Positions 1 through 24,454 are shown, counted from the first letter of the stretch. The stretch is DNA of 64,000 nt from Candidatus Woesearchaeota archaeon (GCA_018303115.1 JAGVYT010000001.1:10279-74278), one strand, 5' to 3'. Notes: generated by a model from the letters alone, not told the origin. Made by a program: numbers and translations.

Positions 1-548
1 CAAAATACAAGGCAGAATGCGAAAAGGCACTGCAAAAAGAGGAAATGGAATGGGTTGTCATCAGACCGGCAACAGTATGCGGTTATGCGCGCAGGCTAAG
101 GCTTGACCTGGCAGTCAACATACTCACGGTCAACGCGCTCGTGAACAGAAAAATCAAAATCTTCGGGGGAAACCAGCTAAGGCCCAACATAAACATCAAG
201 GATATGGCAAGGTGCTATGAAGCCCTGCTAACAGCGCCCTCTGAAAAAATAAACCACCAAGTATTCAATGCAGGATACCAAAACCTCTCCATCAATAAAA
301 TTGCCAGAGCAGTCAAGAAGCTCTGCGGAGAAGACATTGAAATGGAAGTTGTCCCAACGGATGACAACAGGTCATACCACATCAACTCGGACAAAATTGC
401 AAGAATCCTCAGCTTCAAGCCGGAATTCACAGTAGAAGAGGCAATACAAAGCATCATAGACGCCTTCAAAAAGGGGCTGATTAAAGACGGCCTTAATAAT
501 CCAATATACCACAACATAAAAAGAATGAAAGAGCTTAATCTCAAGTAA
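1..548 (+). CDS. NAD-dependent epimerase/dehydratase family protein, C-terminal part (5' end outside window)
   Basis: ORF 45..548 reads like the C-terminal substrate-binding half of a GalE/RmlB-type SDR enzyme; reading frame is open to position 1. Confidence 0.6.
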   Translation, partial: KYKAECEKALQKEEMEWVVIRPATVCGYARRLRLDLAVNILTVNALVNRKIKIFGGNQLRPNINIKDMARCYEALLTAPSEKINHQVFNAGYQNLSINKIARAVKKLCGEDIEMEVVPTDDNRSYHINSDKIARILSFKPEFTVEEAIQSIIDAFKKGLIKDGLNNPIYHNIKRMKELNLK

Positions 549-2376
549 TCTCAAGAATCCTGTGGTCTTCATCTTCATACAAAACTCTCGCGTGCTCCCG
601 CATCAACCCCTCCATAAGGGACTCGCGGTGCTCAACATTTCCAAGCAAATCCCTTGCCAAATCTGTTTTTCCAAACAGGATGTGAGTGATGCCAAAACCC
701 TTCAATCCTGCATAAAGCTCACCTGCTGAAGAAAACTCATCAAAATCCAGCGTCTGCTGAAAATAGGTATCTGAAAGAAAATACTTACGCTCAAGATGAT
801 AGCTCCTTGTCTCCCGGAAGAAGAGAACATACGCCTCCTCAGAAAGGTTGTTGTTTGCAAACTGCAACGCCTTAAAAGGATTTGAATCCTCTCCGCCAGC
901 AAGGTAATTTTCCTTTGACACAACCCCAAACGCAGCAGGCATGCGCTTTGCAGCAATGCCAGCCCATACCGGAACAGAGAACAGCAGCACAAGAAGAACC
1001 AAGGCGGCAATGACAAGGCGATACCTTGACTTCTCAAGCACCCAAAACACAGAATAAGCAGCCGGCGGCATCAAGACTGCCATGACTGGAAGAAGATAGC
1101 GCAGCCCGGGATTTGTGAACTGCCACGCGAACATTGAAATAAAAAAGATGAGGACTGCATAGCCGGCAAACAGCCGCTTCCCGCCAGGAATGGCACGGGG
1201 GATGAAAAGGGGGAGAAAAACAAGGAAAAAAGGGGTAATGCCCAGAACGCTGTCAAACTTGACAGGGTTAAATGTTATTAGCACAGGAAGGACGGCAAAC
1301 TTTAAAATCCCCTTAACATTGAATGCGTTAAACCCGCTGTCCTCAGCAACTAGGCCTTCCATATGCCGGTTAAGCTCCACAGCCAGGGGGTCGCGAGTGA
1401 TTTTTGACAGGAACGGGTAAACAGGGTCGCCTGTGTTTGAGTAAACCCATGCGAACCATGGCGCTGCAACAAGCAGCATAACAGCACCTGCTGTTAAAGA
1501 ATACCTGGCGAACAGCTTGAAGTTGCTTCTATAACGCAGAATCAGCCACACAACAAAAGCCATAGCGAAAGCAACAGACGCAAATAAAGCGGTTATCTTG
1601 TAAAAAGCAAGCGAAGACGCAAAAACAGAAAACAACAACACCCACTTCATGCCCTGCCTTTCAGAAAAGGAAAGCAGGGAGTAAAAAGCCAGAATGGAAA
1701 AAAAGGCTATTGGAAGGTCTACGAGCGGCTGGGACGCCCACTCAATAAAAACAGGCATGCTGGCAAATGCCAAGCCGGCAAACCATGCCGCCTTTCTGGA
1801 GAAAAAGCGGTAAGTCGCTGCAGCAACAGCCAAAGCAGCCAACGAGCTAATAGTAGCTGCTAAAAGGCTCGGCACTTGCTCACCAACCCCAAATAATTCC
1901 GGCAGCACGTAGAGCATGCTAAAGCCATGGGGAATGCTGGCATGAATGTTATTCGGCATTTCAGAAACAGCGTGCTGCTGCGCGTAAAATTTTGCTATAG
2001 GAAGGTGGTAGTTAAGGGCGTCTATGCTGAACACAGGGGCAAGGGACATAACGAAATTGCCAATAAGAAGGAGCGCCAGGGCAAAAAACAGGAATGCGTT
2101 CAAATCCCACTTTACAGAAAGCCTTATTTTTCCCCAGCTTTTTATTTCACTTACAGAAAGAAGCAGGATAACAAAAGCCACTGCCACGAAAACCGGGCGG
2201 TAAAGCAGCCCGAGCAAGCCAAGATAAAAAATTCCCAGAGTTGCTAAAACAGTTCCCAGCCCGACAGAAAACAAAGCCTTCTCATACCATGCAAGCCCCA
2301 GCTTTGAAAGAACCCTTGAGCCAAGCAAATAAAAAATGGCTACCAAAGCAAGCCAAAAAAATATTTCAGCAATCAT
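541..2376 (-). CDS. integral membrane glycosyltransferase, GT-C fold (polyprenol-phosphate-sugar dependent, ArnT/PMT-like), family uncertain
   Basis: ~610 aa with >10 predicted TM helices followed by a soluble C-terminal domain. Start chosen at internal ATG (MIAEIFFWLAL...) because the upstream extension is Cys/Pro-rich and non-TM. Sits in a glycan cluster. Confidence 0.5.
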   Translation of the reverse strand: MIAEIFFWLALVAIFYLLGSRVLSKLGLAWYEKALFSVGLGTVLATLGIFYLGLLGLLYRPVFVAVAFVILLLSVSEIKSWGKIRLSVKWDLNAFLFFALALLLIGNFVMSLAPVFSIDALNYHLPIAKFYAQQHAVSEMPNNIHASIPHGFSMLYVLPELFGVGEQVPSLLAATISSLAALAVAAATYRFFSRKAAWFAGLAFASMPVFIEWASQPLVDLPIAFFSILAFYSLLSFSERQGMKWVLLFSVFASSLAFYKITALFASVAFAMAFVVWLILRYRSNFKLFARYSLTAGAVMLLVAAPWFAWVYSNTGDPVYPFLSKITRDPLAVELNRHMEGLVAEDSGFNAFNVKGILKFAVLPVLITFNPVKFDSVLGITPFFLVFLPLFIPRAIPGGKRLFAGYAVLIFFISMFAWQFTNPGLRYLLPVMAVLMPPAAYSVFWVLEKSRYRLVIAALVLLVLLFSVPVWAGIAAKRMPAAFGVVSKENYLAGGEDSNPFKALQFANNNLSEEAYVLFFRETRSYHLERKYFLSDTYFQQTLDFDEFSSAGELYAGLKGFGITHILFGKTDLARDLLGNVEHRESLMEGLMREHARVLYEDEDHRILEIT

Positions 2377-2476
2377 GCGTAAAACCCCAGAATTTGAATT
2401 GAGCGGATAACCAGGAAAGCAGCTATAGCTACGACAATCCACAGCAGCAATAACAAGTCAAGCCCTTTACCCATTT

Positions 2477-3139
2477 TCATTCAAAGTAAATAAACTCGTA
2501 ATCGCCCGTATAGCCAAGGCGCTCAAAAAGCCACACCCACTCCTCAGGCCTGAAAAAAGACTCTGCAGTCAGCGCCCAGCACTCAAGGTTAAACAGCTCA
2601 AGCTCATTCCTGTAAGATTCCATTGTAACATACTTATTCCTGCCAACCCTTTCAATCTCACTCAATGCAGTCTGCAATTCAGGGAGGGTAAGGTTATGCA
2701 GGGTGTTAAGGGATATAACCAAATCAAACTCCTTGTCCCCAAACCCGTAAGGCTCCTGCGCCCTGTGCACGAAAAGACTGCTTTTAACCTCCTCCTTGGC
2801 ATTTTTTATGGCATATTCCGAAATGTCAAACCCCTTAACTTCGCATTTTGGAAGCAGCTTCTTAAACTCATAAAGAAGAAACGCCTTTCCGCACCCAACA
2901 TCCAGTATTTTTGCGTTTTCCTGAAGGTTGTAAGCCTCAATAAGCTTTTTCGCGACAGTCTCCCACCTTCCGTCATACCTGTAGCCGCCATAGCCGTATC
3001 TCCTATCCCCGTCCCAGTATTCCCGGCCATACTTCCTGGATATTTTCATGCACTCAACTTTATCATCATTCATTCTTCCGATACAATCCCTTTTCGACCT
3101 TTTATGCAGCGGCGTTATAATAGCCAACAGTTTTCCCAT
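2477..3139 (-). CDS. class I SAM-dependent methyltransferase
   Basis: Motif I LDVGCGKAF, acidic residue at GFDIS, motif II FDLVIS. The ORF caller's start is a GTG; first ATG (MGKLL) used. Confidence 0.65.
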   Translation of the reverse strand: MGKLLAIITPLHKRSKRDCIGRMNDDKVECMKISRKYGREYWDGDRRYGYGGYRYDGRWETVAKKLIEAYNLQENAKILDVGCGKAFLLYEFKKLLPKCEVKGFDISEYAIKNAKEEVKSSLFVHRAQEPYGFGDKEFDLVISLNTLHNLTLPELQTALSEIERVGRNKYVTMESYRNELELFNLECWALTAESFFRPEEWVWLFERLGYTGDYEFIYFE

Positions 3140-3159
3140 ACTTAACACCTCACAACACC

Positions 3160-4080
3160 TCACGGCTTTTTCATAAGCTTTCTTATTTCTGCCAACAGGC
3201 TTCCAGCACTAACCGAATATTTTTCCATCAGACTCGCCTGAGAGCCATAACCATCCGGAAAAATGTCAGGGATGCCGATAATTCTGAACAGCTTGCCAAG
3301 ATTGGCTTCTGCTATGACTTCGGCTACAGCGCTTCCGAGCCCCCCGATAATGCTGTGCTCCTCAATGGTGATTATGCCCGACACTTTCCCGGCATACTTG
3401 AGAATGCTCTCCCTGTCTAAAGGTTTTATAGTGGGAACATGGAGTATCGAAACGTCAATCCCCTCATTTTTAATGGAATCTGCAGCTTCCTTAGCAAGCC
3501 CAAGCGTGATGCCAGTTGTTACAACCAGCACATCCTTTCCCTCCCTCATTGGAATGGCTCTGCCAATCTCAAAAGAATCATTGGAAGTGACTATGGGGTC
3601 AAAGCCCTTGGCAAGCCTTATGTAAATAGGGCCTGGGTAATCAACAGTTAGCGGCATCACCCTGCGCATTTCATCAGCATCAGCAGGGGCTATCACAGTC
3701 ATGTTCGGTATTGCACGCATAATAGCAATATCATCAATCGCCTCATGGGTTGGGCCAAGGGGGGCATACACAAGTCCACCGCCATTGCCAATAAGGCGGA
3801 CAGGCAGGTTATGCAGGCACAAGTCCAGAACAATCTGCTCAAAACAGCGCCTTGTTATAAAAGTTGCAATTGTGTTAACATAAACTATCTTGCCCTCAAG
3901 GGCAAGCCCTGCAGCCATCCCGATAATATTCTGCTCTGACACGCCCTCCATGAAAAAGCGATCAGGCATCTCCTTCTTGAACCTGTCAAGCGTGCCTGCG
4001 CCAAGGTCAGAGCCTATAAAGAATATTCTCCTGTCTTTTTTTGCCAGTTCGTAAACCATTTCCAAGCTTGTCTTGCGCAT
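3160..4080 (-). CDS. transketolase, C-terminal subunit (pyrimidine-binding and C-terminal domains)
   Basis: FFMEGVSEQN..GMAAGLALEGK, GPTHEAIDDIA and the MRAIPNMTVIAPAD block are typical of split transketolase subunit B. 1-nt overlap with upstream subunit. Confidence 0.85.
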   Translation of the reverse strand: MRKTSLEMVYELAKKDRRIFFIGSDLGAGTLDRFKKEMPDRFFMEGVSEQNIIGMAAGLALEGKIVYVNTIATFITRRCFEQIVLDLCLHNLPVRLIGNGGGLVYAPLGPTHEAIDDIAIMRAIPNMTVIAPADADEMRRVMPLTVDYPGPIYIRLAKGFDPIVTSNDSFEIGRAIPMREGKDVLVVTTGITLGLAKEAADSIKNEGIDVSILHVPTIKPLDRESILKYAGKVSGIITIEEHSIIGGLGSAVAEVIAEANLGKLFRIIGIPDIFPDGYGSQASLMEKYSVSAGSLLAEIRKLMKKP

Positions 4081-4892
4081 CAGTATTCCTCCAGCCCCCT
4101 GTAAAGTTCCTTAATTTCACCGTCGTTCAACCCGCTCTTGTGATGCCATTCCATGTTGCCCTCTGCAAACTTAATGCCCTTGCCCTTCATAGTATGACAA
4201 ATGACAACGCTGGGCTTACCCGCATCTACAGGCAGGTTTGAGAACGCAGACTTAAGCTCATCCAAATCATGACCATCCACTTCCCTGACGCCAAACCCAA
4301 AACTCCTCCACTTATCAGCCAAAGGCTCCAGGTCCTGAATGCCAACTGTCGGGCCATAAGACTGATACTTGTTATAATCCATAACAACAACGAGATTGTC
4401 AAGCTTATGCTTCCCGGCAGACAAGGCAGCCTCCCACACGCTGCCCTCATCTGCCTCACCATCTCCAATGACGACAAAAGTGCGGTAACCTGCTTTTTCA
4501 TAGCGCGCATTAAGGGCCATGCCTATCCCCACAGGAAAGCCGTGTCCCAAACTGCCTGTTGAAAACTCAACGCCGGGTATTTTAGGCTCAGGATGACCCC
4601 CAAGAATGCCATCAATCTTACAGAATTTCCATAACTCTGATTCAGGGAAAAACCCTTTCTCTGCAAGAACTGCGTAAAGCGCAAGACAGCCATGACCTTT
4701 GCTGAGGATGAACCTGTCCCGCCCCTCCCATCCGGGGTTTTCGGCTTTGTAACGCAGAACATCATCATACAAAACCCTGATAATTTCCACCAGGGAAAAG
4801 GCAGAGCCCAGGTGCCCGCGCCTGCTGCACTCCAAAATCCTGATTATTGTCCTTCGCAGTTCCTTTGATTTAGCGTCAAGAGGCATCGTCAC
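4080..4892 (-). CDS. transketolase, N-terminal subunit (TPP-binding)
   Basis: GHLGSAFS, SKGHGCLALYA, GSLGHGFPVGIGMA and GDGEADEGSVWEA thiamine-diphosphate motifs. Confidence 0.85.
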   Translation of the reverse strand: MTMPLDAKSKELRRTIIRILECSRRGHLGSAFSLVEIIRVLYDDVLRYKAENPGWEGRDRFILSKGHGCLALYAVLAEKGFFPESELWKFCKIDGILGGHPEPKIPGVEFSTGSLGHGFPVGIGMALNARYEKAGYRTFVVIGDGEADEGSVWEAALSAGKHKLDNLVVVMDYNKYQSYGPTVGIQDLEPLADKWRSFGFGVREVDGHDLDELKSAFSNLPVDAGKPSVVICHTMKGKGIKFAEGNMEWHHKSGLNDGEIKELYRGLEEY

Positions 4893-5950
4893 AACCCATA
4901 AGGAAAGTTCTTATAAACCAGAGAAACTTCGTCAAGAAGCACCCTTGCCTTAACAAGCTGCTCAGCCTGCACCTCCTCTGCCACCAGCGGTTCTCCATAA
5001 GCGAACTGCCTCCTGAGAAAATGCTCGGCAAGGAACTCGTTCAGGATGATAAGGCACCACTTGAGGCCGAAGAGAGGAAAAACAATCCTCAACCTTGCTT
5101 CAAGGGAGCTGTCTTCAGGAAAGCACGAAAGGACATTCCTGACAAAATGTTCCTTAAGCCCGGAACTAAGATTCATCTCCGGGTGAAGCAGAAAATCAGA
5201 AATTGTTTTTGCAGGGTCATCCCAGCCAAAATGCTCAAAATCAAGGAAAACGATAGAGCCGTCGCCTTTCCTCAATGCGTTATGGAATCCGAAGTCAGAC
5301 GGGCTTAGAACCATCCTTCTTTTCTTTATGAAAGAGCCGTATTCCAATTCGCTCCCAAAAAACTCCAGCTCTGACCTGCACCACCTGACAACTGAATTAA
5401 ACAAAGGCAGAAACTCCTCCTCAAGAAACCCGCTCAGGCCGACATCCTCTGAAATCTCAGCCAGCCGGTTATACCTTTTTTCCAAGTTTCCAACTACATC
5501 GCCAACCGAAAAAAAGGCCTCAGAAGCCGGAGAAATGCCGACAGCCTTCTGCCTCAGAGCATTAATCCTCTTAAGAAAATCAGAGGCATAGTCTATATCC
5601 CTCTCTGTTATACCCTGAGAACCAACCTTTGCCCCGTCAATATACTCGTAAATTGCAAAGCGTTGCTCATTATGAATGAAAATAGGCTCAGGGACGTTCC
5701 TTATCCCGTTATTCCAAAGAAAGCGCAAGGCGGAAAACTCCACGCCCATCCTGTCCCTGAAATCAAGCTCATTGGAAAAATAGAATTTACACGCGTATTT
5801 TTTAGAATCATTACACCTAACAAGATAAATCCTGCTGTTACGGCCCTTGGCGATTCTCTCAAAAGAACGCACGCCACTCCCCACTATAGGAAGTATAAGT
5901 GAAATCCTCTTCTGGAAGAACTTATCTTCCTGACCTGAATAAGTGCCCAT
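4889..5950 (-). CDS. aminoglycoside-phosphotransferase-fold kinase (APH/choline-kinase family), probable sugar kinase
   Basis: Catalytic-loop-like SDFGFHN and FLDFEHFGWDDP motifs of the APH/ChoK/AmgK fold. 4-nt overlap with transketolase gene. Confidence 0.6.
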   Translation of the reverse strand: MGTYSGQEDKFFQKRISLILPIVGSGVRSFERIAKGRNSRIYLVRCNDSKKYACKFYFSNELDFRDRMGVEFSALRFLWNNGIRNVPEPIFIHNEQRFAIYEYIDGAKVGSQGITERDIDYASDFLKRINALRQKAVGISPASEAFFSVGDVVGNLEKRYNRLAEISEDVGLSGFLEEEFLPLFNSVVRWCRSELEFFGSELEYGSFIKKRRMVLSPSDFGFHNALRKGDGSIVFLDFEHFGWDDPAKTISDFLLHPEMNLSSGLKEHFVRNVLSCFPEDSSLEARLRIVFPLFGLKWCLIILNEFLAEHFLRRQFAYGEPLVAEEVQAEQLVKARVLLDEVSLVYKNFPYGL

Positions 5951-6545
5951 TTATGCCATCCCAGCTCCTGAAAACCTTAACGCCGTCCAAATGCCCCTGC
6001 CCTCCATAAGGGTCATACAAAATCTTCTCGACCCATTCAGGGAACAGCCTGTCACAAAACGTTTCCTCAAGGTCGTCTATGAAATGCGTGCAGCCAAGCT
6101 GCCTGATTCGCTGCAGCTTCCCTTCCCTTGTAGACTCAAAGTGAACATCCGCTCTTGAAACAGCCAACCCCCCCTCTTTAAAAAAGTTGTTTCTTTCCAT
6201 CCAATCAAGCGCAGCTTTCCTGAAGTTGGAACCGCCCCCGAAGTAATTCGAGAACTCAGTCTTATGGCTGATTATAAAAACCTTAACCCTATTATCCTTA
6301 CACAGCCTGAAAAACCGCTCAACACCGTCTATAAGCTCAGCTTCCCCCATCCTCTGCCCGTAAATAACAGCCTGCACCTCCTGCCATTTTTCATCCCCGT
6401 GAACCTGCCTGACGGCATCGCGGATATGCCTTTTGACCTTCTTAATGCCCTCGCTGACTAAACCCATCTCCAGGGCAACCTTGTGTATCAGGGCATCATA
6501 GCTCACAATAGTGTTGTCCAAGTCCACTCCAATAACATAATCCAT
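5922..6545 (-). CDS. HAD-superfamily phosphatase
   Basis: N-terminal DxD motif (MDYVIGVDLDNTIV) and later FIISHKT / FIDD motifs. Start set at first ATG (ORF caller start is TTG). Confidence 0.6.
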   Translation of the reverse strand: MDYVIGVDLDNTIVSYDALIHKVALEMGLVSEGIKKVKRHIRDAVRQVHGDEKWQEVQAVIYGQRMGEAELIDGVERFFRLCKDNRVKVFIISHKTEFSNYFGGGSNFRKAALDWMERNNFFKEGGLAVSRADVHFESTREGKLQRIRQLGCTHFIDDLEETFCDRLFPEWVEKILYDPYGGQGHLDGVKVFRSWDGINGHLFRSGR

Positions 6546-6643
6546 TGTGTTTTGGTTGAAAAGCAAATCTATATAAATATTCTGACATTCCTCTGCAAAG
6601 GGGTTTAAGCAAAAGCCGCGAATATAAAACAGGCTATAACAAA

Positions 6644-7525
6644 ATGCCTAACGAAATAGACAGGATTGTAATCTTCGGGCACACCGGATTCATAGGCAGG
6701 CATCTTGAGAGGTTCCTGAAAGAAAAACACCCTGAACTGGAAATAATAGGGGCTTCGCTTCCATCAGTTGACCTTACCAAGGACAGTGCTCCCGTAAAAG
6801 GGCTTTTTGGAATGAAAACAGCAGTCATCATGCTGTCTGCGCTTAAGAGGGAACACGGCGACAACCTGGACAATTTCTTAAAGAATGTAAAAATGGCTGT
6901 GAATGTCTGCAAGCAAATTGAAAACAATCCTGTCAAGCGATTCATTTACTTCAGCTCAGCAGCAGTTTACGGGGAGGACGTCCAAAATTTAAGCATCAAC
7001 GAGGACAGCCCGGTAACCCCGACAACATATTACGGGATAGCGAAACACAGCTGTGAAAGACTGCTTAGAAAAGCCACAGGCTCCGGAAAAGGAAGCGCTC
7101 TCACTATTTTGAGGCCGCCGATAATATACGGGCCAGGAGACAACTCAGGCTACAGCCCTTCCGGGTTTGCAAAAACAGCGATGAGAGGCGAAACCATAAA
7201 ATTGTGGGGGGACGGCACTGAAAAAAGGGAGTTTATATTCGTGGAGGATGTTGCGAGGGCAGTAGAGAAGCTTGTCTTAAACAACCACGATTGCACGTTG
7301 AACCTGGCAAGCGGCAAAAGCTACACTTTCGCTGAAATAATAGACGAGCTGTCAAAACTGACTAATTCAGAAATAAAAGTCGAATCAAGGAAGAGAACGA
7401 AAGAAAAGGCTGACCACGGATTTGAAAACACTGCGCTGCTGAAGGTGTTCCCGGAATTTTCGTTCACGCCGTTAAGCGAAGGCCTTAAGAAAACAATTGA
7501 CGCGATAAAAGGGGGAACAGAATGA
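6644..7525 (+). CDS. NAD(P)-dependent sugar epimerase/reductase (SDR family, RmlD/GDP-fucose-synthase-like)
   Basis: N-terminal GHTGFIGRHL Rossmann motif, YGIAKHSCE (YxxxK) active site. TATA-like GAATATAAAA ~22 nt upstream. Confidence 0.65.
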   Translation: MPNEIDRIVIFGHTGFIGRHLERFLKEKHPELEIIGASLPSVDLTKDSAPVKGLFGMKTAVIMLSALKREHGDNLDNFLKNVKMAVNVCKQIENNPVKRFIYFSSAAVYGEDVQNLSINEDSPVTPTTYYGIAKHSCERLLRKATGSGKGSALTILRPPIIYGPGDNSGYSPSGFAKTAMRGETIKLWGDGTEKREFIFVEDVARAVEKLVLNNHDCTLNLASGKSYTFAEIIDELSKLTNSEIKVESRKRTKEKADHGFENTALLKVFPEFSFTPLSEGLKKTIDAIKGGTE

Positions 7526-10486: not shown

Positions 10487-10487
10487 G

Positions 10488-16114: not shown

Positions 16115-16805
16115 ACTTCAAGCGCACCCTGAAGAACAGCCTAAAAACCGTGCTTACGATTCCAAAAACATTCCTGAGGCGCAGGGCAGTAGTTGAGCTG
16201 GTTTCCTGCAGCGCCATAATTGGAACTTCCTTTACAGAATGCCCCGCCTTCACGAGCCGTATAAGAATCTCAGGATAAACCCCGAAGCTGCTGGTTGTGA
16301 TGCTCACTTTCCCAACAAGGCTTTTTTCATACATCTGCATGCCAAAATAATACTTCAGGCGAAGTCCGAACAAAAGGTTCAGGAAAGCGGAAACAACAGC
16401 GGAAATGACCCGGCGGTGAAGAAGCCTGACCTTCTTGTTTCCGCTGTAGGAAATAACAACATCCGCCTGACCAATCTTGCCCATGTAATTCTCAAGAGAA
16501 TCCGGGGTCAGGCTGTCAGGGCCTGGAAGCAGCATCACGTATTCCTTGGAAGCGTGCCTAATGCCAAGAGCGTAGCTGTAACCAACATTCATGTTCCTCC
16601 TGTTATGAAACACCCTTATCCTGGAATTCCTTTTTGCAAGCCTGTCAACAATTTCCCCTGTCCTGTCACTGCTCCCGTCCTCAAAAATAAGCAGCTCGTA
16701 ATCTGAAAACAGCTTAGCGGCAATTCTACTGACACCCCTTACAGAAGATGCAATAGTCTGCTCATCGTTATACGCCGGTATTATGATGCTGACTGACTTT
16801 TTCAT
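16095..16805 (-). CDS. GT2 glycosyltransferase (ArnC/DPM1-like polyprenol-phosphate sugar transferase candidate)
   Basis: SIIIPAYNDEQTI and the FEDGSSD (DxD-type) motif. Start at internal MKKSVSIII. Confidence 0.7.
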   Translation of the reverse strand: MKKSVSIIIPAYNDEQTIASSVRGVSRIAAKLFSDYELLIFEDGSSDRTGEIVDRLAKRNSRIRVFHNRRNMNVGYSYALGIRHASKEYVMLLPGPDSLTPDSLENYMGKIGQADVVISYSGNKKVRLLHRRVISAVVSAFLNLLFGLRLKYYFGMQMYEKSLVGKVSITTSSFGVYPEILIRLVKAGHSVKEVPIMALQETSSTTALRLRNVFGIVSTVFRLFFRVRLKSIRFLF

Positions 16806-17182
16806 GCCCACACCGCGGAGTAGCCCATCATTGCCACCCCAAACACTATGGCGGCTATCCCAAGCCACTTATACTTATTCATGCGCTCCCCCAAAAACCT
16901 CACCGACAGCAGCGAAACCCAAACAAAAGTCAAGGCATTTGTGGGAAAGACAACCGCCAGGTCCGCATTTTTTAACGCCCACAAGTAAAAGGGCATAGGC
17001 AGCAGGTAAAAAAAGACGCCAAGCATAAGCTTATAGTTACGCAGCTGCTCAGCAACGCTAAAAGAAAACTTCACCGAGCCAAGCTTAAAAAACAGGGCAC
17101 CAAAAGCCACTGAAACCGTCAAAACCGCCACAATGCCAACTACAACGATTGTCTCAACCATGTTCAGCACCATAACCAACAA
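16802..17182 (-). CDS. small EamA/SMR-like 4-TM protein (ArnE/ArnF-like flippase subunit candidate)
   Basis: 126 aa, four hydrophobic helices, 4-nt overlap with the GT2 gene. Confidence 0.55.
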   Translation of the reverse strand: MLVMVLNMVETIVVVGIVAVLTVSVAFGALFFKLGSVKFSFSVAEQLRNYKLMLGVFFYLLPMPFYLWALKNADLAVVFPTNALTFVWVSLLSVRFLGERMNKYKWLGIAAIVFGVAMMGYSAVWA

Positions 17183-17513
17183 GGCTTATCCCCGCAGCAA
17201 TAAAAAATATGCCAAGCCAGTTAATCAAAAGCAGCACTTCATTCAAAACAAACAGGGCTACCAAAGCCACCCATACGTAACTTAATGCAAAAAAAGGGTA
17301 TGCGACAGACAATTCCGCCTTTTTAAGAGCAAAAAGCACAAGCATAGCCCCAAGGGCGTAAAAAAACAGTCCAAGAAATATGTTATAGTTGGTTATTATG
17401 GCCTGCACATTCAGCTCAAGAGCGGCTGCCCCTGTCTTATAGAAGTATTGGGCTGCTACAGAAAATACGGTAAAAATAACAATAAGCAAAATTGCTGCAG
17501 GACTGGTTTTCAT
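17154..17513 (-). CDS. small EamA/SMR-like 4-TM protein, second subunit
   Basis: ~120 aa from MKTSPAAILLIV, four TM helices, overlaps the partner gene. The longer ORF-caller start includes a non-TM extension that overlaps hairpin element e. Confidence 0.5.
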   Translation of the reverse strand: MKTSPAAILLIVIFTVFSVAAQYFYKTGAAALELNVQAIITNYNIFLGLFFYALGAMLVLFALKKAELSVAYPFFALSYVWVALVALFVLNEVLLLINWLGIFFIAAGISLVGYGAEHG

Positions 17514-17578
17514 CAAAAAGCGGAAACGCGACATGTTTTTAAAGATTTGCGTTGACTGGTTCCAAATCTGAACATATT

Positions 17579-17717: not shown

Positions 17718-18758
17718 ATGGAAGAATCGTATATTGAGGGAATTAAAAGAAAGTATTCTATTGAAAAGCTGAAGGAAGCGCTGTCACAATTTAAAAGAAT
17801 AAAAATCCTCGTGATAGGCGACACCATAATTGATGAATACCATTTTACACGCCCGAAAGGCAGGGCAACCAAAGACCCGATTCTTTCAGTTGACTATGTC
17901 AACCATGAGGTTTACGGAGGGGGCATACTGGCTGTTGCAAATCATGTAAGCAATTTTGCAGATGAAGTAACATGCATTACGGCAATTGGAGACAGGAACG
18001 ACCGGAAAGACTTCATCACCGGCGCCCTCAACAAAAACGTAGACTTGAAACTTCTCGTAAAAAAGGACTCGCCAACTACAATAAAAAAGAGGTATTTGGA
18101 CAACATAAGGAATGAAAAACTGTTCAAGGTAGAGTTCATTAACGAAGCCCCAATTGATGAAGAAACTGAAAAAAAGCTTATTGGATTCCTAGAGCAGGAG
18201 CTGCCTAAAAACGACTTGGTCCTCCTTGGAGACTTCGGGCACGGCTTAATAACTGAAAAGGTCATAAAGCTACTGGAAGAAAAGTCAAAATACCTGGCAG
18301 TAAATGCGCAATGCAACAGCGCAAACCTCGGCTTTAATTTTGTAACCAAGTATAGCAAACCAAAATACATAACCATGGACATTACCGAACTGCAGTATGC
18401 TGTTTCGGACCGCTTCAGCACAGTGGATGTCCTGATGAAAAAGCTCAGGGACAAAACAGGCTTCAGCAATTTCCTGGTAACAATGGGAAAGGAAGGCGCA
18501 GGATACTTCAACAACAACAACATTAGATTCAGCCCTGCCTTTGTCACAAGGCCAAAGGACACAGTAGGGGCAGGGGACGCCGTCTTCAGCGTCACTTCCC
18601 TTTTTTCCTGCCTTGGAATGAAAGAGCTAATCCCGTTCATAGCAAACTGCGCAGGCGGCATTGCAGTGTCGTACCTCGGTAACAAGGAGAGCATAAATAA
18701 AGAGAAACTTCTGGAGTTCATCAGCCAGGCATACAATGGCGAGATTAAAGCAGTGTAG
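17718..18758 (+). CDS. pfkB-family sugar kinase, HldE kinase-domain-like (heptose 7-phosphate kinase candidate)
   Basis: ILVIGDTIIDEY N-terminal motif and GAGDAV near the C-terminus as in RfaE/HldE domain I. TTTAAAAA box 22 nt upstream. Confidence 0.65.
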   Translation: MEESYIEGIKRKYSIEKLKEALSQFKRIKILVIGDTIIDEYHFTRPKGRATKDPILSVDYVNHEVYGGGILAVANHVSNFADEVTCITAIGDRNDRKDFITGALNKNVDLKLLVKKDSPTTIKKRYLDNIRNEKLFKVEFINEAPIDEETEKKLIGFLEQELPKNDLVLLGDFGHGLITEKVIKLLEEKSKYLAVNAQCNSANLGFNFVTKYSKPKYITMDITELQYAVSDRFSTVDVLMKKLRDKTGFSNFLVTMGKEGAGYFNNNNIRFSPAFVTRPKDTVGAGDAVFSVTSLFSCLGMKELIPFIANCAGGIAVSYLGNKESINKEKLLEFISQAYNGEIKAV

Positions 18759-19815
18759 AAAACTCTTTCTTCATAGCCTCATAGCTTTTGCTGTTAACGT
18801 CAATAAATTCGGCATTGATGTTTTCAGCCAGTTCAGCATCATTTCGGCTGTCGCCAATAACAACAGCCATATCAAAATCACCGGGAGTCATGTTAAGCTC
18901 CTTCAGAGCCTGAAGAACCATTCCAGGGCTAGGCTTTCTCATGGCCTTATCCTTTACAAAGTCAGGATTAAACTGAACCCCATTTGCCGAAGCCGCATAC
19001 ACTTTATCAACGTCAGGGCAGAACTGCCAGTTATCTATAACAACACCCTTCTCCCTTAAAAATTCCGCAATGCAGCCGTTAACATCAGCCACAGTCTTAA
19101 GCGCAAAATAATTGCGCGCTACGCCCTGCTGATTTGAGATAACAATCTTGACAGTGTCATACTTTGTCTGAACATAAGAAATTAGGTCTATAACAGGCTT
19201 CTGCAGCTTAACCTGCCCCATCCAGTTCTCATCCCTGCCAAGAAAATCAACGTGCTCCACAAGAGTGCCGTCCCTGTCTATTACAAGAAGGATTTTTTCG
19301 CGCTTAACGTTATCCTTTATGTGGTTTATTATTTCAGTTGATGAAAATTTCTGGTCTGCCGTGTATTTCACCTCTCCGCCAGCCGCCTCAATAGCCCTGC
19401 GCTCTGCAGTTATGCCGGGGGTTGTCTTATTGACAAAATCAGGCCCCTTTATGTAAAATGATGGCTTAAGCCTCTCCACGACGTGAACAGCCCGCTCAAA
19501 ATCGCTGACGACCACGAAGTCAACAAAATTAAGGGCTGCTACGGAGTAGGCGCGCAAAAGCTCTGAAAAAATTGGCCTGCCGCTGCCCTTCCTTGCCGTT
19601 ACAAACCTGTCAGAAGTTATTGAAACAAACAAATAATCGCACAACTTCGCTGCAGACTCAAGATGCTTAATGTGCCCGGGATGGAGCAGGTCAAAACCCC
19701 CATGGCAAAGCCCAACAGTTTTATTCGCCTGTTTGAACTCTGAAATTTTCTTAACAGCAGCGCCAAAACCGATAATTTTGTCCGAGCTGAAATCGTTATC
19801 TTCCGCCTTAAACAT
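18745..19815 (-). CDS. bifunctional cytidylyl/adenylyltransferase-like domain (HldE domain II-like) fused to a GmhB-like HAD phosphatase
   Basis: N-terminal GLCHGGFDLLHPGHIKHL (nucleotidyltransferase HxGH-type motif). C-terminal LVIDRDGTLV ... IGDSRNDAELA HAD motifs as in heptose-1,7-bisphosphate phosphatase. Start 19815 preferred over 19875 because a TTTTATAT box lies ~30 nt upstream on the coding strand. Confidence 0.6.
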   Translation of the reverse strand: MFKAEDNDFSSDKIIGFGAAVKKISEFKQANKTVGLCHGGFDLLHPGHIKHLESAAKLCDYLFVSITSDRFVTARKGSGRPIFSELLRAYSVAALNFVDFVVVSDFERAVHVVERLKPSFYIKGPDFVNKTTPGITAERRAIEAAGGEVKYTADQKFSSTEIINHIKDNVKREKILLVIDRDGTLVEHVDFLGRDENWMGQVKLQKPVIDLISYVQTKYDTVKIVISNQQGVARNYFALKTVADVNGCIAEFLREKGVVIDNWQFCPDVDKVYAASANGVQFNPDFVKDKAMRKPSPGMVLQALKELNMTPGDFDMAVVIGDSRNDAELAENINAEFIDVNSKSYEAMKKEFSTLL

Positions 19816-20159
19816 GTTAACCAATGCCAGAGGCAACCCGGAAGAGAATATAAAAGTTTTGCTATAGCGGAACATTCACAGTGACCATTACCAGTCAATT
19901 TCCTGCTTAACTTGGGACTCCCTGCTAAGCCAGACAAGGGTCTTCAGGGGTTGTCCTGAATCCTGTTCGTGTAGCTACTGCATACCCTCAAACCTGTTCT
20001 CCAAAACTTCTATGACCACTCTATGACTCACATACGGCAGAGCAGGAGGGAGGGAAGTAGAAAGGAAGCGATAAACATGCGAGAAAGCCCTTTTAGGACA
20101 GCGCCGGGTCTTCAGGCATTGTTGAAAGTCTTGCCTGCTTGCTTATTCGCCCTTTCTTT

Positions 20160-20200: not shown

Positions 20201-20274
20201 TTGGAGGAAGAAGCGACAGCAGCAAAACGGGCAAATAACGACTTTTTCAACAGAGCCCCGGGTCTTCAGCAACA

Positions 20275-20282
20275 TTTAAATA
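20275..20282 (+). promoter_or_regulatory. archaeal TATA box (TTTAAATA) 22 nt upstream of the surface protein ATG
   Basis: Read directly. No SD-like sequence between box and ATG. Confidence 0.55.
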
Positions 20283-20304
20283 GTTATAAAACGGTTTTGC
20301 GGTT

Positions 20305-22677
20305 ATGAAAAAGAGGTTAATGGCAGTCCTGTCAATGCTGCTGTTTTTTGCAACAGTAAAGCCGGCAATTGCCGCAATCTCAATAACCTCCCCGGAATTC
20401 GGAGTAGCACAGGAACTCACTTTTGACCTTGAACTGAATACAGACTCAAGCGTATCGTGCAGGTTCAGCACCACCTTTGCAAAACCGTTCAATGAAATGG
20501 ATGAAGTCACCACAACAGGAAACACTCTTCACACAATAGAAGGCATCACACTGCCTGCGTTTGGAACAGAATACAACTACTTCATTAACTGCTCGTCCGG
20601 AACTGAAGCGTCGGATATCAAACTAAAAGCGGACAACACAGAGCCTTCAATTCTAAATGCTGTTGCAGAGCCTGAAAAGGTTCTGCAATCCCCGCTTGAA
20701 ACAACACTCAGTGTAAAAACAGGCGAGAATACAAGCTGCAAATACGACCAAACTTTTGAAGAGTATGACAGCATGGCCAATTTTTTTATCGGAAGCGACA
20801 GCGACAAAAACAACTACAAAAACTCACACGAAAAGCCCCTTACACGCCTTAGCGACAACACTGACTACACTTTCAACGTGATGTGCCGCGACTTATCAGG
20901 AAGGAAAACGACCCTTGCAAAAATCAGTTTCAAAGTCAACACAAGCACAGAGCCGGAAATAATTGACTTTACGCCAAAAGACGGCTCTTACAAGGGTGAG
21001 GAGAACGTTGTCATTTCCATAACCACAAACAAAAACAGCATTTGCAAATACGGAAGCGAATCGCCTCCAACAAGGGAGTCGGGAAATTTCAATGTCCAGG
21101 GAACACTGCACGAAACAACACTGCAGCTGGATGAAGGAAGCCACACTTATTATTTCAAGTGCGTGTTTGAAGGCCCTAAAGAACGCACAGCACAAACAAC
21201 ATTCACGATAGACAAGACAAAACCGGCAGTTTTGCTTGTGGATGACGACCAGAAACTTGACGATGCGCCTGACGGCTACACATACTACACAAACAGGCTA
21301 AAAGCAAGGTGGGAAGCAAAAGACAACGAATCAGGCATTAAAGACTACAATTACTCAATAATCTCGGGGAGCATGACGGTAGTAAACTGGAGCACAACAA
21401 CATCTGACGAAGTAACCGCAAGAGACCTTGAGCTGCAGGACGGAAGGGAGTATGTTTTCAGGGTTAAGGCGCGAAACAACGCAGGGCTATGGAGCGAGAC
21501 AAAGGAAAGCGACGGGGTAAGGGTTGACATAAGCCTGAACGCAGAGCAGGCCTGCAAGAACGAAGTAAAAGACGGGGACGAAACAGACGTGGACTGCGGA
21601 GGAAGCTGCGCAAGAAAATGCTTACTGAAAGAAAGCTGTGAAATCACTGACGACTGCTCAAGCGGATACTGCTCAGAGGGAAAATGCGCAAAGGGAAGCT
21701 GCGATGACGGCGTAAAAAACCAGGACGAAACAGACGTGGACTGCGGAGGAAGCTGCGAGGCCTGCCTTGAAGGGGATAAGTGCAAAGAAAGCATTGACTG
21801 CGAAAGCGGCATATGCGCAGAAGATATATGCATCTCAAAAGGCCCGTGCTACAACGGGGTGCTTGACCCAAAAGAAACAGACGTGGACTGCGGAGGGGTT
21901 TGCGCTGAACTGAAATCCATAAAATGCCAGCTAGGCAAAAAATGCTCTGGTGACGAAGACTGCAGAAGCAGAACTTGCGGCATAGACGGAAAGTGCGCTG
22001 CCATGAATGACGGGGATTATGATTCAGTAGTTGACGATAAAGACAACTGCCAGCGGGCTTACAATCCAAAACAGGAAGACACTGACAAAGACGGCTTTGG
22101 AGACTCATGCGATGACGACAGCGATAACGACGGCATGGCAGATGAGTGGGAGAAGAGCTACGGCCTTAATTTCATGAGCCCTGGCGACGCACTGCTTGAC
22201 AACGACGGCGACACGCTTTCAAACCTTAAAGAATCACACCTGAAAACAAACCCGCTGATGGCTGACAGCGACAGGGACGGGTATGACGACGCAGAAGAGG
22301 TTGAAAAAGGAACAGATCCAAACGATGCAGGGTCAAAGCTAAAGAAAAGCAGGCTGCTGACATTCTTTGCATGGATGCTTTTGTTCCTTGCAATATTTGC
22401 AGCAATAGCTTACTTTTATTACAGAAAGCTTACAGGCCCTGTGCTGGAAACAAAAAGGGAACAGGAAAGAAGGGCATCCCATTACGAACCGCCAAGAGCC
22501 GTTCAAGAACCCAAGCAAGAGCGCAAATACAGGCCAGAGCCGATATACAGGCCAACACCTCCTGAAAGAAGGCACACCACAGGAGACCTTGACGAAATCA
22601 GAAGGCACCACTCAAGCCTTTCAGGGGAAGAAGTGTTTGAAAGGCTAAAAAGGCATACGAGAAGGAGGCGACACTAA
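20305..22677 (+). CDS. surface (S-layer-like) glycoprotein candidate: signal peptide, Ig-like region, three Cys-rich repeats, TSP3-like Ca-binding repeats, C-terminal TM anchor with basic tail
   Basis: N-terminal MKKRLMAVLSMLLFFATVKPAIA. Three ~45-aa repeats with ETDVDCGGxC. D-rich DxDxDG repeats. TM helix LLTFFAWMLLFLAIFAAIAYFYY then a Pro/Arg/Glu-rich cytoplasmic tail. Many N-x-S/T sequons. TTTAAATA box at 20275-20282. Confidence 0.6.
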   Translation: MKKRLMAVLSMLLFFATVKPAIAAISITSPEFGVAQELTFDLELNTDSSVSCRFSTTFAKPFNEMDEVTTTGNTLHTIEGITLPAFGTEYNYFINCSSGTEASDIKLKADNTEPSILNAVAEPEKVLQSPLETTLSVKTGENTSCKYDQTFEEYDSMANFFIGSDSDKNNYKNSHEKPLTRLSDNTDYTFNVMCRDLSGRKTTLAKISFKVNTSTEPEIIDFTPKDGSYKGEENVVISITTNKNSICKYGSESPPTRESGNFNVQGTLHETTLQLDEGSHTYYFKCVFEGPKERTAQTTFTIDKTKPAVLLVDDDQKLDDAPDGYTYYTNRLKARWEAKDNESGIKDYNYSIISGSMTVVNWSTTTSDEVTARDLELQDGREYVFRVKARNNAGLWSETKESDGVRVDISLNAEQACKNEVKDGDETDVDCGGSCARKCLLKESCEITDDCSSGYCSEGKCAKGSCDDGVKNQDETDVDCGGSCEACLEGDKCKESIDCESGICAEDICISKGPCYNGVLDPKETDVDCGGVCAELKSIKCQLGKKCSGDEDCRSRTCGIDGKCAAMNDGDYDSVVDDKDNCQRAYNPKQEDTDKDGFGDSCDDDSDNDGMADEWEKSYGLNFMSPGDALLDNDGDTLSNLKESHLKTNPLMADSDRDGYDDAEEVEKGTDPNDAGSKLKKSRLLTFFAWMLLFLAIFAAIAYFYYRKLTGPVLETKREQERRASHYEPPRAVQEPKQERKYRPEPIYRPTPPERRHTTGDLDEIRRHHSSLSGEEVFERLKRHTRRRRH

Positions 22678-22714
22678 CAAAACTTTTATAATAATGCCAG
22701 ATTAACTGCGGCAT

Positions 22715-24454
22715 ATGCAAAAGCTTGACGCTGCAGCTGTGCTTGTTTTGGCGATTTTTTCTGCCATTCTTCTAAACGTTTCAGCGCAAAACTCAGCCAC
22801 CTTCGAGGAAAACAACCACCTCTCAACAGGCTATTACTTTCTGCTGACAAACGATTACCGCCTTGGGCCTGGCCACCCGCCCCTCACTTACAAGCTGGCT
22901 GCGGCACCGCTGCTTTTTTCAGGAGCAGACTTCCCTTTTGAAAACGATTACTGCAAAAACTTTCTTTATTACGGCTGCGCGCAGGAACTTCTATACAACT
23001 CAGGACTTAACAGCCAGCTTTTAACATTTCTAGGAAGACTCCCATTCACAGCGCTGGCTGCACTTACAGGGCTTGTAGTTTACCTCTGGTCAAAGCAGCT
23101 TTACGGAAGGAAGGCAGGCGTTCTTTCACTCCTCCTTTACTCCTTTAGCCCAGCAGTGCTCGGATGGTCTGCGCTGATAATGACTGACTTTTCTGCTGCA
23201 GCCTTTGCATTCACCAGCGTTTACTTTCTCTGGCGGCTTATGAGAAAGCCAAACACGCTCAACCTGCTTCTTACAGGGCTTTTCTTCGGCCTTGCCGTAT
23301 CGTCAAAATTCACTGCCGTTTTGTTCTTACCAATATACCTCTGCATAGCAGTTTTCTGGTTCTTTTCAGGAAAACCCTACAGCTTTTCCAGGCTGAAAAG
23401 GCATTTGCCAAAAATACTGCGCAACAGAGAAGCCTCATTTATAGCAAGCATAACAATAATAGCCGGTATTGCGTTCCTCGTTGTCTGGGCTGTTTACGGG
23501 TTTGACACAGGAAGCTACTCAAGCGGGGCTCCTGAGCGCTACACAGACTTGGTTTACGAAAACGTTCCTGCAAAGTTTGAGAACACGGCATCCTTCCTGA
23601 TTGAAAAAATGCCTTTGCCTTTCCCATCACTCTTTGTGGGAGTTTCCCAGCAAATATTTACGTCAGCAACAGGCTCAAAGCCATCCTTCCTTTTAGGCAA
23701 CACTTACGAAGGCGGCGTCTGGTACTTCCACATCATAGAGTTCCTCGTCAAGGTTCCAGCGGCATTCATTATCCTGCTTTTGCTCAGCATTTCAATGCTT
23801 TTAATCAACAGGAAAAGCTACCAAAACGACACCCTGTTCCTGCTTGTCCCTGCACTGACATACTACGCTGCTTTTGCCGTGATAATAAACATTGGCTCAG
23901 GCATACAGCACATACTTCCGGTTTTCCTTTTCCTGTTTGTCTTTGTTGGAAGAACAGCACTATCAAAAAAGCCGATGCAATGGCTTGTATACGGACTTGC
24001 CGCCTGGTATGTCATAGCATCATTATCAGCATTCCCACACTACATCTCATACTTCAACGAGTATGTTGACGATGACGAGGGCTACAAATACTTTCTTGGA
24101 GCAAACCTCGACATGGGACAGGACCTGAAAGCCCTTTCCACTTATGTGAAAGAAAATAACCTGGACATAAAACTCAGCTATTTCGGGACAACCGACCCCG
24201 CAGCCTATCTTGACTATGAATACCTGCCCTCACCGTTTTTCCAGGCATGGGCGCCTGGGTTCGCACATTCAAAAAATGACTTGAATGCCAATTACACTGA
24301 AAACTGCGGCAGGACAGAAGGCATCATAGCCGTCAGCATAACCAACAGGGAAGGGGCTTTTATGCTTAACAGCTCATGCTACGACTGGCTTAAAGAATAC
24401 GAGCCAACAGAAGTCATAGGGCACACAATATTCGTTTACAACATTACGCAATGA
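22715..24454 (+). CDS. GT-C membrane glycosyltransferase, PMT_2 / GT39-GT83 (ArnT-like) family
   Basis: Multi-TM protein with the conserved first-loop GHPPLTYKL motif typical of the ArnT/PMT family. TATA-like TTTTATAA 22 nt upstream. Confidence 0.65.
   Translation: MQKLDAAAVLVLAIFSAILLNVSAQNSATFEENNHLSTGYYFLLTNDYRLGPGHPPLTYKLAAAPLLFSGADFPFENDYCKNFLYYGCAQELLYNSGLNSQLLTFLGRLPFTALAALTGLVVYLWSKQLYGRKAGVLSLLLYSFSPAVLGWSALIMTDFSAAAFAFTSVYFLWRLMRKPNTLNLLLTGLFFGLAVSSKFTAVLFLPIYLCIAVFWFFSGKPYSFSRLKRHLPKILRNREASFIASITIIAGIAFLVVWAVYGFDTGSYSSGAPERYTDLVYENVPAKFENTASFLIEKMPLPFPSLFVGVSQQIFTSATGSKPSFLLGNTYEGGVWYFHIIEFLVKVPAAFIILLLLSISMLLINRKSYQNDTLFLLVPALTYYAAFAVIINIGSGIQHILPVFLFLFVFVGRTALSKKPMQWLVYGLAAWYVIASLSAFPHYISYFNEYVDDDEGYKYFLGANLDMGQDLKALSTYVKENNLDIKLSYFGTTDPAAYLDYEYLPSPFFQAWAPGFAHSKNDLNANYTENCGRTEGIIAVSITNREGAFMLNSSCYDWLKEYEPTEVIGHTIFVYNITQ

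Follow-up and report, generated by a model that had tools for sequence, protein, structure and literature searches.

A variable heptose-gene island and a canonical flank encode two candidate three-component glycosylation systems in a woesearchaeal genome segment

In the three-component glycosylation systems of bacteria, a GT2 enzyme loads one sugar on polyprenyl phosphate, a small membrane protein flips the product and a GT-C enzyme transfers the sugar outside the cell (PMC11127046). A similar division of labour is known in Haloferax volcanii, where AglD, AglR and AglS take part in the synthesis of a dolichyl-phosphate (Dol-P) monosaccharide, its flipping and its extracellular transfer by a separate transferase (PMC3871713). 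Here we describe a stretch of 64,000 nucleotides from a Candidatus Woesearchaeota archaeon (GCA_018303115.1, JAGVYT010000001.1:10279-74278; the window), in which two such extracytoplasmic systems of a DPANN archaeon appear to adjoin each other: System A, carried by an island of sugar genes, and System B, located in the conserved flank. We regard this reading as somewhat probable and put it no higher, since every functional step is derived from homology, predicted structure and gene context. The underlying mechanism is already known from the bacterial scheme and its haloarchaeal precedent. The variant features are an anchorless enzyme resembling polyprenyl-phosphate glycosyltransferases (Pren-P GTs) with an altered DXD motif, its coupling to a half-size EamA pair, the heptose island and the DPANN host. 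Compared with the described bacterial systems (GtrB/GtrA/Gtr*, CsbB/GtcA/YfhO and the Citrobacter pentofuranose system), System B matches family by family and System A in logic. Unlike in those systems, the GT2 of System A has no transmembrane (TM) helix and carries PGPDS instead of DADLQ, two half-size EamA proteins are the candidates for the flippase and the donor is apparently a heavily tailored heptose. In a DPANN host, dolichyl phosphate would be the expected carrier.

Gene content was derived from an open reading frame (ORF) listing with Pfam and NCBIfam scans, in which NCBIfam equivalog cut-offs served as the standard. All gene families named in a first-pass annotation of the window were found where it had placed them (Table 1). 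That annotation had interpreted them as an Arn-like lipid-carrier route. Its general logic is retained here, with a GT2 resembling Pren-P GTs, a pair of small proteins as candidate flippase and GT-C enzymes acting apart from AglB; the specific analogy to Arn is not. In the following, L-numbers denote comparison loci or contigs, and coordinates without a prefix are window positions.

The core of System A consists of two EamA genes and a short GT2 gene. Their stop and start codons overlap (ATGGTTGA between EamA-1 and EamA-2, then ATGA), so that GT2 is translationally coupled to both EamA genes. The two EamA proteins are 36% identical. Their best NCBIfam matches are ArnE and ArnF (23-43 bits, best 35-43, against cut-offs of 92-99), and neither has an SMR/Multi_Drug_Res match in Pfam at E<=0.01, in agreement with the earlier assignment to EamA/ArnE-F-like proteins rather than SMR efflux pumps. 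The sole PDB matches, which are weak, are to a nucleotide-sugar transporter of the drug/metabolite transporter (DMT) superfamily. Following the positive-inside rule, the distribution of lysine and arginine residues (three inside versus one outside in EamA-1 with the N-terminus in, seven versus one in EamA-2 with the N-terminus out) suggests that the two proteins have opposite topologies, as in antiparallel heterodimers. Together with the size, the four TM helices, the adjacency and the paralogy of the two proteins, this bias would fit a flippase of the ArnE/ArnF type. The best 150 relatives of EamA-2 in a search of 1.84 billion representatives are almost all 106-130 aa long and thus belong to the half-size class. 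In one relative, the 505-aa protein P0253, a half-size EamA domain is predicted to be joined to a DegT-family sugar aminotransferase, and this single predicted protein ties the EamA subfamily to amino-sugar pathways.

The short GT2, whose start codon agrees with that chosen by gene callers on identical metagenome contigs, groups best with ArnC, DPMS and GtrB, by profile as well as by predicted fold. When searched against the PDB as a single sequence, it matches ArnC (1e-9), PfDPMS and GtrB, plus the nucleotide-binding half of many other GT2s. With a profile of 20 family sequences, full-length matches are restricted to ArnC (4e-28, positions 3-219) and PfDPMS (7e-23, positions 3-225); GtrB aligns over positions 5-167 (1e-21), and the alignments to all remaining GT2s cover no more than 105-133 N-terminal positions. 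For the AlphaFold (AF2) model (pLDDT 88.5), the 15 closest PDB structures are all ArnC, PfDPMS or GtrB, with TM-scores of 0.71-0.79 versus 0.53-0.66 for other GT2s. Helices 129-146 and 210-233 of the model are found where ArnC, DPMS and GtrB carry two membrane-interface (JM/IF) helices. All 13 core family members share residues R127, R131 and S135; R131 and S135 align with R137 and S141 of ArnC, and their R-x3-S spacing is that of R131 and S135 in PfDPMS. The equivalent Arg and Ser residues bind the lipid phosphate in ArnC (PMC12690121) and PfDPMS (PMC5526996). TM prediction detected no C-terminal TM helix in the short GT2. However, a TM anchor of its own is not strictly defining for Pren-P GTs: a PfDPMS variant without the TM domain (deletion 230-352) keeps its activity and still associates with the membrane, and human DPM1, which also has no anchor, depends on the small partners DPM2 and DPM3 (PMC5526996). 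The short GT2 resembles DPM1 and TM-less PfDPMS in having predicted interface helices and candidate small membrane partners, encoded separately, in place of its own TM helix. By contrast, DPM2 and DPM3 are two-TM anchors rather than DMT transporters, and DPM1 keeps the canonical DXD motif.

A number of observations count against assigning this block to a Pren-P GT and its flippase. The DADLQ signature is absent from the GT2: the window protein has LLPGPDSL and bacterial members have PGDxE. In the DADLQ[DNH] motif, the second Asp and the Gln bind metal, and the first Asp was proposed to be the catalytic base in ArnC (PMC12690121). Pro replaces this first Asp in nearly all members of the family, and the clade of the window GT2 has its metal-binding Asp displaced by one residue (PGPDS). 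Searched on its own, the acceptor half of the family yields no significant match in the PDB; hence the residue correspondence with ArnC rests on the full-length profile alignment, and the homology to Pren-P GTs on the full-length profile path together with the predicted structure. Both EamA proteins score below the ArnE/ArnF cut-offs, and beside bacterial orthologs of the GT2 the EamA pair is absent and other small membrane proteins or LPG_synthase_TM proteins are found. In L180, which keeps the block, neither a GT-C nor a surface protein is encoded within 10 kb of it. Large polytopic membrane proteins are encoded within 6 kb of 16 of the 19 family loci, several of them matching PMT_2 or YfhO, yet this is just modestly above the background (62 of 101 GT2 loci). 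The Pren-P type that the first-pass annotation had assigned to the GT2 holds for profile, fold and the Arg/Arg/Ser site and fails for the DADLQ motif and the TM anchor.

The altered DXD motif with its family-wide replacement of the catalytic-base Asp by Pro, the missing TM helix and the unmatched acceptor half would also fit an enzyme that is not a polyprenyl-phosphate transferase. Such a GT2 would add its sugar to another phosphorylated or lipid-linked acceptor, for example an oligosaccharide being built on Dol-P(P) for AglB or a small phosphorylated compound made by the co-travelling kinase and thiamine pyrophosphate (TPP) enzymes, while the EamA pair would carry a different substrate. In line with this, the most specific genomic partner of the GT2 family is not a GT-C but a TPP pair, which is present within 6 kb of the GT2 gene, as either a transketolase-type or an E1 alpha/beta-type pair, in 13 of the 19 family loci with enough flank versus none of 101 background GT2 loci. 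We nevertheless consider this alternative unlikely. The closest folds are solely Pren-P GTs, the two membrane-interface helices included, the Arg/Arg/Ser triad is invariant and the GT2 gene overlaps membrane-protein genes in a conserved block. Furthermore, GT-C neighbours recur in the family, and in L102 (9998-12337) a GT2 with 31% identity to the window GT2 and a PMT_2 GT-C domain are joined in one 779-aa protein, which links the two predicted enzyme types in the Rosetta-stone manner. A divergent subfamily of Pren-P GT-like enzymes without the first Asp of DXD, as suggested by the short GT2, bears on the debate over this residue as the catalytic base.

Two proteins of the window, GTC1 and GTC2, are GT-C glycosyltransferases by sequence, both exceeding the Pfam PMT_2 gathering score of 26.1, and for GTC1 the modelled fold agrees. 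GTC1 is named a GT39 family protein in NCBI, where an identical sequence comes from a Candidatus Woesearchaeota metagenome-assembled genome. The best PDB match of its AF2 model (pLDDT 85.5) is ArnT (5F15), the top 46 matches are all GT-C enzymes, and D119 in the first outer loop is invariant. GTC2 has no PDB match by sequence. It carries the HPPL motif reported in the first-pass annotation, as GPGHPPL at residues 52-58; P55 and P56 are invariant in 20 homologs, as are E32, located in the first outer loop, D158 and K198. That annotation had placed both GT-Cs in one Arn-like route. Both are genuine GT-C enzymes, but conserved synteny assigns GTC2 to a canonical GtrB/GtrA module that had been overlooked, which leaves GTC1 as the likelier partner of the short GT2. 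This pairing is also suggested by the position of GTC1 inside the island, by its best fold match to ArnT and by the GTC1 orthologs of L094 and L089, which occur in the same locus as GT2 orthologs, with a full set of heptose genes in L089.

The canonical module, System B, has the predicted make-up of a textbook three-component system, consisting of GT2b, GtrA, a GalE-like epimerase and GTC2, and is kept in a relative without the island. GT2b matches the NCBIfam ArnC model over its full length with 180.7 bits (cut-off 529) and PgfS with 140 bits. L085 and L178 share the collinear arrangement of GT2b, GtrA and GTC2. In L178, a marine relative in which GTC2 is 74% identical, the order is GTC2, epimerase, GT2, methyltransferase, GtrA, dehydratase, nucleoside triphosphate (NTP)-transferase and UDP-glucose dehydrogenase (Ugd), and the same genes are present in the window. 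Here, and only here, GTC2 is separated from GT2b and GtrA, by an insertion of ~4.3 kb with a GC content of 33-35% versus 47%. Because of the synteny in relatives, GTC2 is best paired with GT2b and GtrA. The insertion encodes an ACT-domain protein, a PIN_2 toxin and unknowns, and contains cassette-like direct repeats (46 nt, 96%, at 26057 and 27726; 35 nt, 100%, at 27845 and 29616; 35 nt, 80%, at 26877 and 27606). An additional gene set is found ~6 kb past the island of another woesearchaeal genome, GCA_016185705.1 (L094:17487-21833). It includes a GTC2-like PMT_2 protein, a methyltransferase, a 231-aa GT2, an epimerase and an NTP-transferase, and this third set in the same genome points to several such modules per genome.

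Synteny in archaea was obtained from exact-protein look-ups; profile scans of genome and metagenome contigs listed no close archaeal relatives. The earlier expectation that the locus is syntenic in relatives was borne out. GCA_016185705.1 is collinear with the window over the entire island, with 55-79% identity between the compared proteins. The order there is methyltransferase, GT2b, epimerase, GTC2, surface protein, HldC/HAD, PfkB, EamA, EamA and GT2, followed by the tailoring genes, transketolase-like (TK) genes, methyltransferase, GTC1, short-chain dehydrogenase/reductase (SDR) genes, GmhA and RPA. The EamA-EamA-GT2 block is present in three woesearchaeal lineages (the window, L085 and L180), with 65-79% identity in the other two. 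In the third lineage (L180/L181), the block is 66-74% identical and its flanks are rearranged: PfkB, nucleotidyltransferase, TK, APH, alcohol dehydrogenase (ADH) and methyltransferase genes are retained in a different order, and the formyltransferase is absent. L178, apart from the low-GC insert, is collinear with 22707-35746, starting exactly at the GTC2 gene, and has no counterpart of window positions 1-22700. Since everything to the left of GTC2 is missing from this relative, the segment from the surface-protein gene to GmhA is a variable island and GTC2 belongs to the conserved flank. To the left of window position 1, a metagenome contig ~100% identical to the window (L095:4829-7684) supplies the remainder of the SDR gene cut by the edge, a second SDR gene and a SIS/GmhA gene (proteins of 323, 362 and 195 aa), so that the island and its heptose pathway reach ~2.5 kb past the window edge. 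In total, the island of System A spans ~25 kb, from the surface-protein gene (20305) leftwards past 541 to GmhA outside the window.

The genes for sugar activation are of the heptose type. GmhA, the PfkB kinase and the HldC-GmhB fusion together complete a nucleoside diphosphate (NDP)-heptose pathway at the level of family assignment, since the kinase and nucleotidyltransferase scores are all under the equivalog cut-offs; HAD-IIIA and histidinol-phosphatase domain models are above cut-off in the fusion protein. We found no confident position in the HldC-like domain for STTR5, the motif of nucleotide specificity in heptose nucleotidyltransferases. Enzymes of NDP-heptose synthesis were recently reported in archaea, with their use not known (PMC11461863). 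Given the heptose activation genes and the tailoring set, the donor is most likely a heavily modified heptose and not a pentose of the 4-amino-4-deoxy-L-arabinose (Ara4N) type. In this DPANN genome, the island places an NDP-heptose route within what may be a complete system for export and transfer, with a surface protein alongside, and thereby offers testable candidates for archaeal heptose use and for surface glycosylation other than by AglB. Among the tailoring genes, the TPP pair, Zn-ADH and methyltransferase recall routes to two-carbon branched sugars, in which AviB1/AviB2, Pau11/Pau12 with the ketoreductase Pau7, and YerE take part (PMC4753412). As with AviB1/AviB2 and Pau11/Pau12-Pau7, a TPP-dependent pair, a ketoreductase candidate and methyltransferases are encoded beside NDP-sugar dehydratase genes; unlike those pairs, which are E1-like, the window pair is transketolase-like, and its role might alternatively be to provide a ketose phosphate. 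The 214-aa ORF next to the APH-type kinase (5922-6566) has no Pfam match, and its sequence opens with a DLDNT motif of the HAD type. In L087 and L094 both proteins form a single fusion of 541-550 aa, which suggests a kinase/phosphatase pair acting on a pathway intermediate.

Taken in this way, System A would begin with NDP-heptose formed by GmhA, the PfkB kinase and the HldC-GmhB fusion. Tailoring would comprise 4,6-dehydration, a TPP-dependent two-carbon step with ketoreduction, C- and O-methylation, transamination and N-formylation. The anchorless 236-aa GT2 would then move the sugar onto dolichyl phosphate at the inner membrane face. It probably sits on, or passes its product to, the antiparallel EamA heterodimer, which would flip the Dol-P-sugar outward. 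Finally, ArnT-like GTC1 would put the single sugar on a surface acceptor, the obvious candidate being the membrane protein of the island or its glycan. Observed directly are the family and fold assignments, the overlaps of genes, the synteny and the limits of the island; the lipid acceptor, the flipping, the pairing of each GT-C with a GT2, the kind of sugar and the final acceptor are inferred.

The similarities to the bacterial Arn pathway are confined to shared families and general logic. Common to both are a clustered DegT aminotransferase, an Fmt/ArnA-N-type formyltransferase, a Pren-P GT-like GT2, a 4-TM DMT pair and a GT-C with ArnT as its best fold match. A true archaeal Arn system would place a 4-formamido pentose on the lipid carrier, deformylate it, flip it by ArnE/F and add it to a membrane lipid, changing the surface charge. 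Besides the Pfam families of ArnB, ArnA-N, ArnC, ArnE/F and ArnT, the presence of Ugd (33437-34735) speaks for such a system. However, Ugd lies in the conserved flank shared with L178, which has no island, and no component reaches its Arn equivalog cut-off: ArnB scores 171.6 of the required 631 bits, ArnA 86.4 of 777 (N domain only), ArnC 40.8 of 529 for the short GT2 and ArnE 35-43 of 92. LegC and PseC models outscore ArnB for the aminotransferase. The island has no ArnA decarboxylase domain, and no ArnD-like polysaccharide deacetylase was matched in Pfam among the island and flanking ORFs scanned. The formyltransferase is not conserved with the block, as seen in L180, and bacterial GT2 orthologs travel with TPP enzymes rather than with aminotransferase and formyltransferase genes. 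In addition, the acceptor cannot be lipid A. The analogy thus fails on orthology scores, sugar type, ArnD and formyltransferase conservation. We consider a true archaeal Arn pathway highly improbable, and the interpretation of the sugar as 4-deoxy-4-formamido-L-arabinose (Ara4FN) was ruled out by the heptose genes, the sub-threshold Arn scores and the absence of ArnD.

The nature of the acceptor is approached through the surface protein of the island. It combines a signal peptide and Cys-rich and TSP3 repeats with a single TM helix at the C-terminus and a basic tail; its ortholog in L085 is 55% identical, and none is present in L178. As cargo of the island that adjoins GTC2, it is a reasonable candidate, although its role as acceptor is conjecture. 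The protein had been described as sequon-rich, which was rejected by counting: six N-X-S/T sequons in 790 aa (7.6 per 1000) are no denser than the 8.0-8.3 per 1000 of cytoplasmic neighbours. The reported absence of AglB from the window was confirmed, as a six-frame search found no WWDYG-type motif. It is still conceivable, if rather improbable, that the locus is an ordinary AglB-dependent N-glycan cluster, in which the nucleotide sugar feeds a lipid-linked oligosaccharide and the GT-Cs add terminal sugars, like AglS, or modify lipids. AglB could be encoded elsewhere in the genome, the view being limited to 64 kb, the surface protein does have its six sequons, and in Hfx. volcanii AglD, AglR and AglS add the last mannose after transfer by AglB (PMC3871713). 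Against this, the AglB motif is missing from the window and the island has no set of cytoplasmic glycosyltransferases for oligosaccharide building; moreover, such a cluster would use the same mechanism as the one proposed for System A and differ in the acceptor only. The haloarchaeal pathway also resembles System A in that a Dol-P-sugar is made, flipped and then transferred by a separate enzyme after or apart from AglB. It differs in its Wzx/MATE-like AglR, in the membrane domains of AglD, in the use of mannose and in its acceptor, an N-linked tetrasaccharide. A bolder version of System A holds that the PGPDS GT2 and the EamA pair form an undescribed Dol-P glycosyltransferase-flippase complex for a TPP-branched, methylated and N-formylated heptose, and that together with GTC1 it glycosylates the island surface protein directly. 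We regard this as decidedly doubtful. If true, protein glycosylation independent of AglB (O- or otherwise) would for the first time have a genetically defined route in Archaea, carried on a swappable DPANN island.

The GT2 family extends well beyond Woesearchaeota. Among the matches listed in contig profile scans with the GT2 alignment, most are generic GT2s and at least a dozen are true family members. The family is represented in Omnitrophota, Nitrospirota, candidate phyla radiation (CPR) bacteria, Planctomycetota, Alphaproteobacteria and others, and relatives of the GT2 are also named Woesearchaeota. The specific link of the PGD/PGPDS GT2 family to a TPP pair was seen across the window and loci L005-L010, L014, L027, L087, L089, L091-L093, L098 and L099, often accompanied by S-adenosylmethionine (SAM) methyltransferase, Zn-ADH and radical-SAM genes. 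This association across phyla suggests an undescribed branched-sugar pathway. If the bolder version of System A is true, the wider family (CPR, Omnitrophota, Nitrospirota, Planctomycetota) would mark a widespread, unstudied lipid-linked pathway of this kind. Flippase candidates vary with lineage and include the EamA pair in Woesearchaeota, a single EamA/SMR-like protein in Liptonbacterium, LPG_synthase_TM proteins and paired proteins of 160-180 aa. Beside bacterial GT2 orthologs, usually directly downstream, we found paired proteins of 160-210 aa with three TM helices and a conserved soluble C-terminal domain (L093:10696-11705, L099:2113-3179, L101:3120-4129, L098:5652-6811 and L092:5658-6709; a single one in L007:11270-11797). 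Apart from a faint HTH_45 match they have no match in Pfam; a relationship of the 160-180-aa pairs to EamA or GtrA was ruled out on this ground and by their different architecture. The 160-210-aa proteins may be membrane anchors or partners of the anchorless GT2.

Table 1. Features of the island, the canonical module and the insertion, in window coordinates.
Feature	Coordinates	Strand	Basis
SDR epimerase/dehydratase gene, 3' part, cut by window edge	1-548	+	Pfam Epimerase
GTC1, GT-C glycosyltransferase (PMT_2/GT39-like, ~13 TM), proposed extracytoplasmic transferase of the island	541-2376	-	PMT_2 31.4 bits
SAM methyltransferase, co-travels with the GT2 family	2477-3163	-	Pfam; present in L007, L009, L014, L027, L087, L093, L180
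Split transketolase-like TPP enzyme (C half 3160-4080, N half 4080-4892)	3160-4892	-	Pfam Transket_pyr, Transketolase_C, Transketolase_N
APH-type kinase (4889-5950) and 214-aa protein (5922-6566)	4889-6566	-	Pfam APH
SDR	6644-7525	+	Pfam, NCBIfam; in overlapping operon 6644-12520
C-methyltransferase with WbuC cupin	7522-9264	+	Pfam, NCBIfam; same operon
C-methyltransferase	9257-10486	+	Pfam, NCBIfam; same operon
DegT-family aminotransferase	10488-11573	+	Pfam 282 bits; same operon
N-formyltransferase, N and C domains	11570-12520	+	Pfam; NCBIfam ArnA 86 bits, Fmt 86 bits, both far below cut-off
Zn-dependent ADH, possible ketoreductase	12738-13766	-	Pfam; present in L009, L014, L093, L180
NDP-sugar 4,6-dehydratase-like SDR	13911-14900	+	NCBIfam dTDP-glucose 4,6-dehydratase 210 bits, below cut-off
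405-aa methyltransferase	14897-16114	+	Pfam Methyltransf_23
Short GT2, 236 aa, no TM helix, PGPDS for DADLQ; proposed dolichyl-phosphate glycosyltransferase	16095-16805	-	Family profile, fold
EamA-2, half-size DMT protein, 119 aa, 4 TM, predicted N-out	16802-17161	-	Pfam EamA 40 bits; best NCBIfam match ArnE
EamA-1, paralog of EamA-2, 119 aa, 4 TM, predicted N-in	17154-17513	-	Pfam EamA, NCBIfam, lysine/arginine bias
PfkB kinase, HldA/HldE domain I-like (heptose-7-phosphate kinase)	17718-18758	+	Best NCBIfam match rfaE_dom_I 131 bits, below cut-off
HldC-like nucleotidyltransferase and GmhB-like HAD phosphatase fusion	18745-19875	-	NCBIfam rfaE_dom_II 108 bits
Type-I membrane surface protein, 790 aa, island-borne, candidate acceptor	20305-22677	+	Sequence, TM prediction, weak TSP3 and fn3 matches
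GTC2, GT39/PMT-like GT-C, FEE and HPPL motifs, part of the neighbouring canonical module	22715-24454	+	PMT_2 50.5 bits, PMT 30.3 bits
GalE-like NDP-sugar epimerase of canonical module	24490-25446	-	NCBIfam galE 202 bits, below cut-off; adjoins GTC2 and GT2b in L085, L178
Low-GC insertion splitting canonical module, approximate bounds	25500-29750		Composition; absent from L178, L085
GT2b, canonical GtrB/ArnC-type Pren-P GT, 334 aa, DSDLQN, 2 C-terminal TM	29768-30772	+	NCBIfam, TM prediction, motif
Methyltransferase of canonical module	30784-31392	+	Pfam; same position in L085, L178
GtrA-family small membrane protein, flippase candidate	31377-31793	+	Pfam GtrA_DPMS_TM 57 bits (gathering 26.1); ortholog in same place in L178

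Further to the right in the window, two ORFs of 250 and 271 aa (35791-37342) have no Pfam match. They are followed by a stand-alone 5S rRNA gene (37382-37497, Rfam 78.9 bits), with no 16S or 23S rRNA gene adjacent to it and no tRNA gene anywhere in the window. Two more GT2 genes are located at 43210-45207, one encoding a 229-aa short form and the other a 412-aa synthase-like form that matches Glyco_trans_2_3 and Chitin_synth_2.

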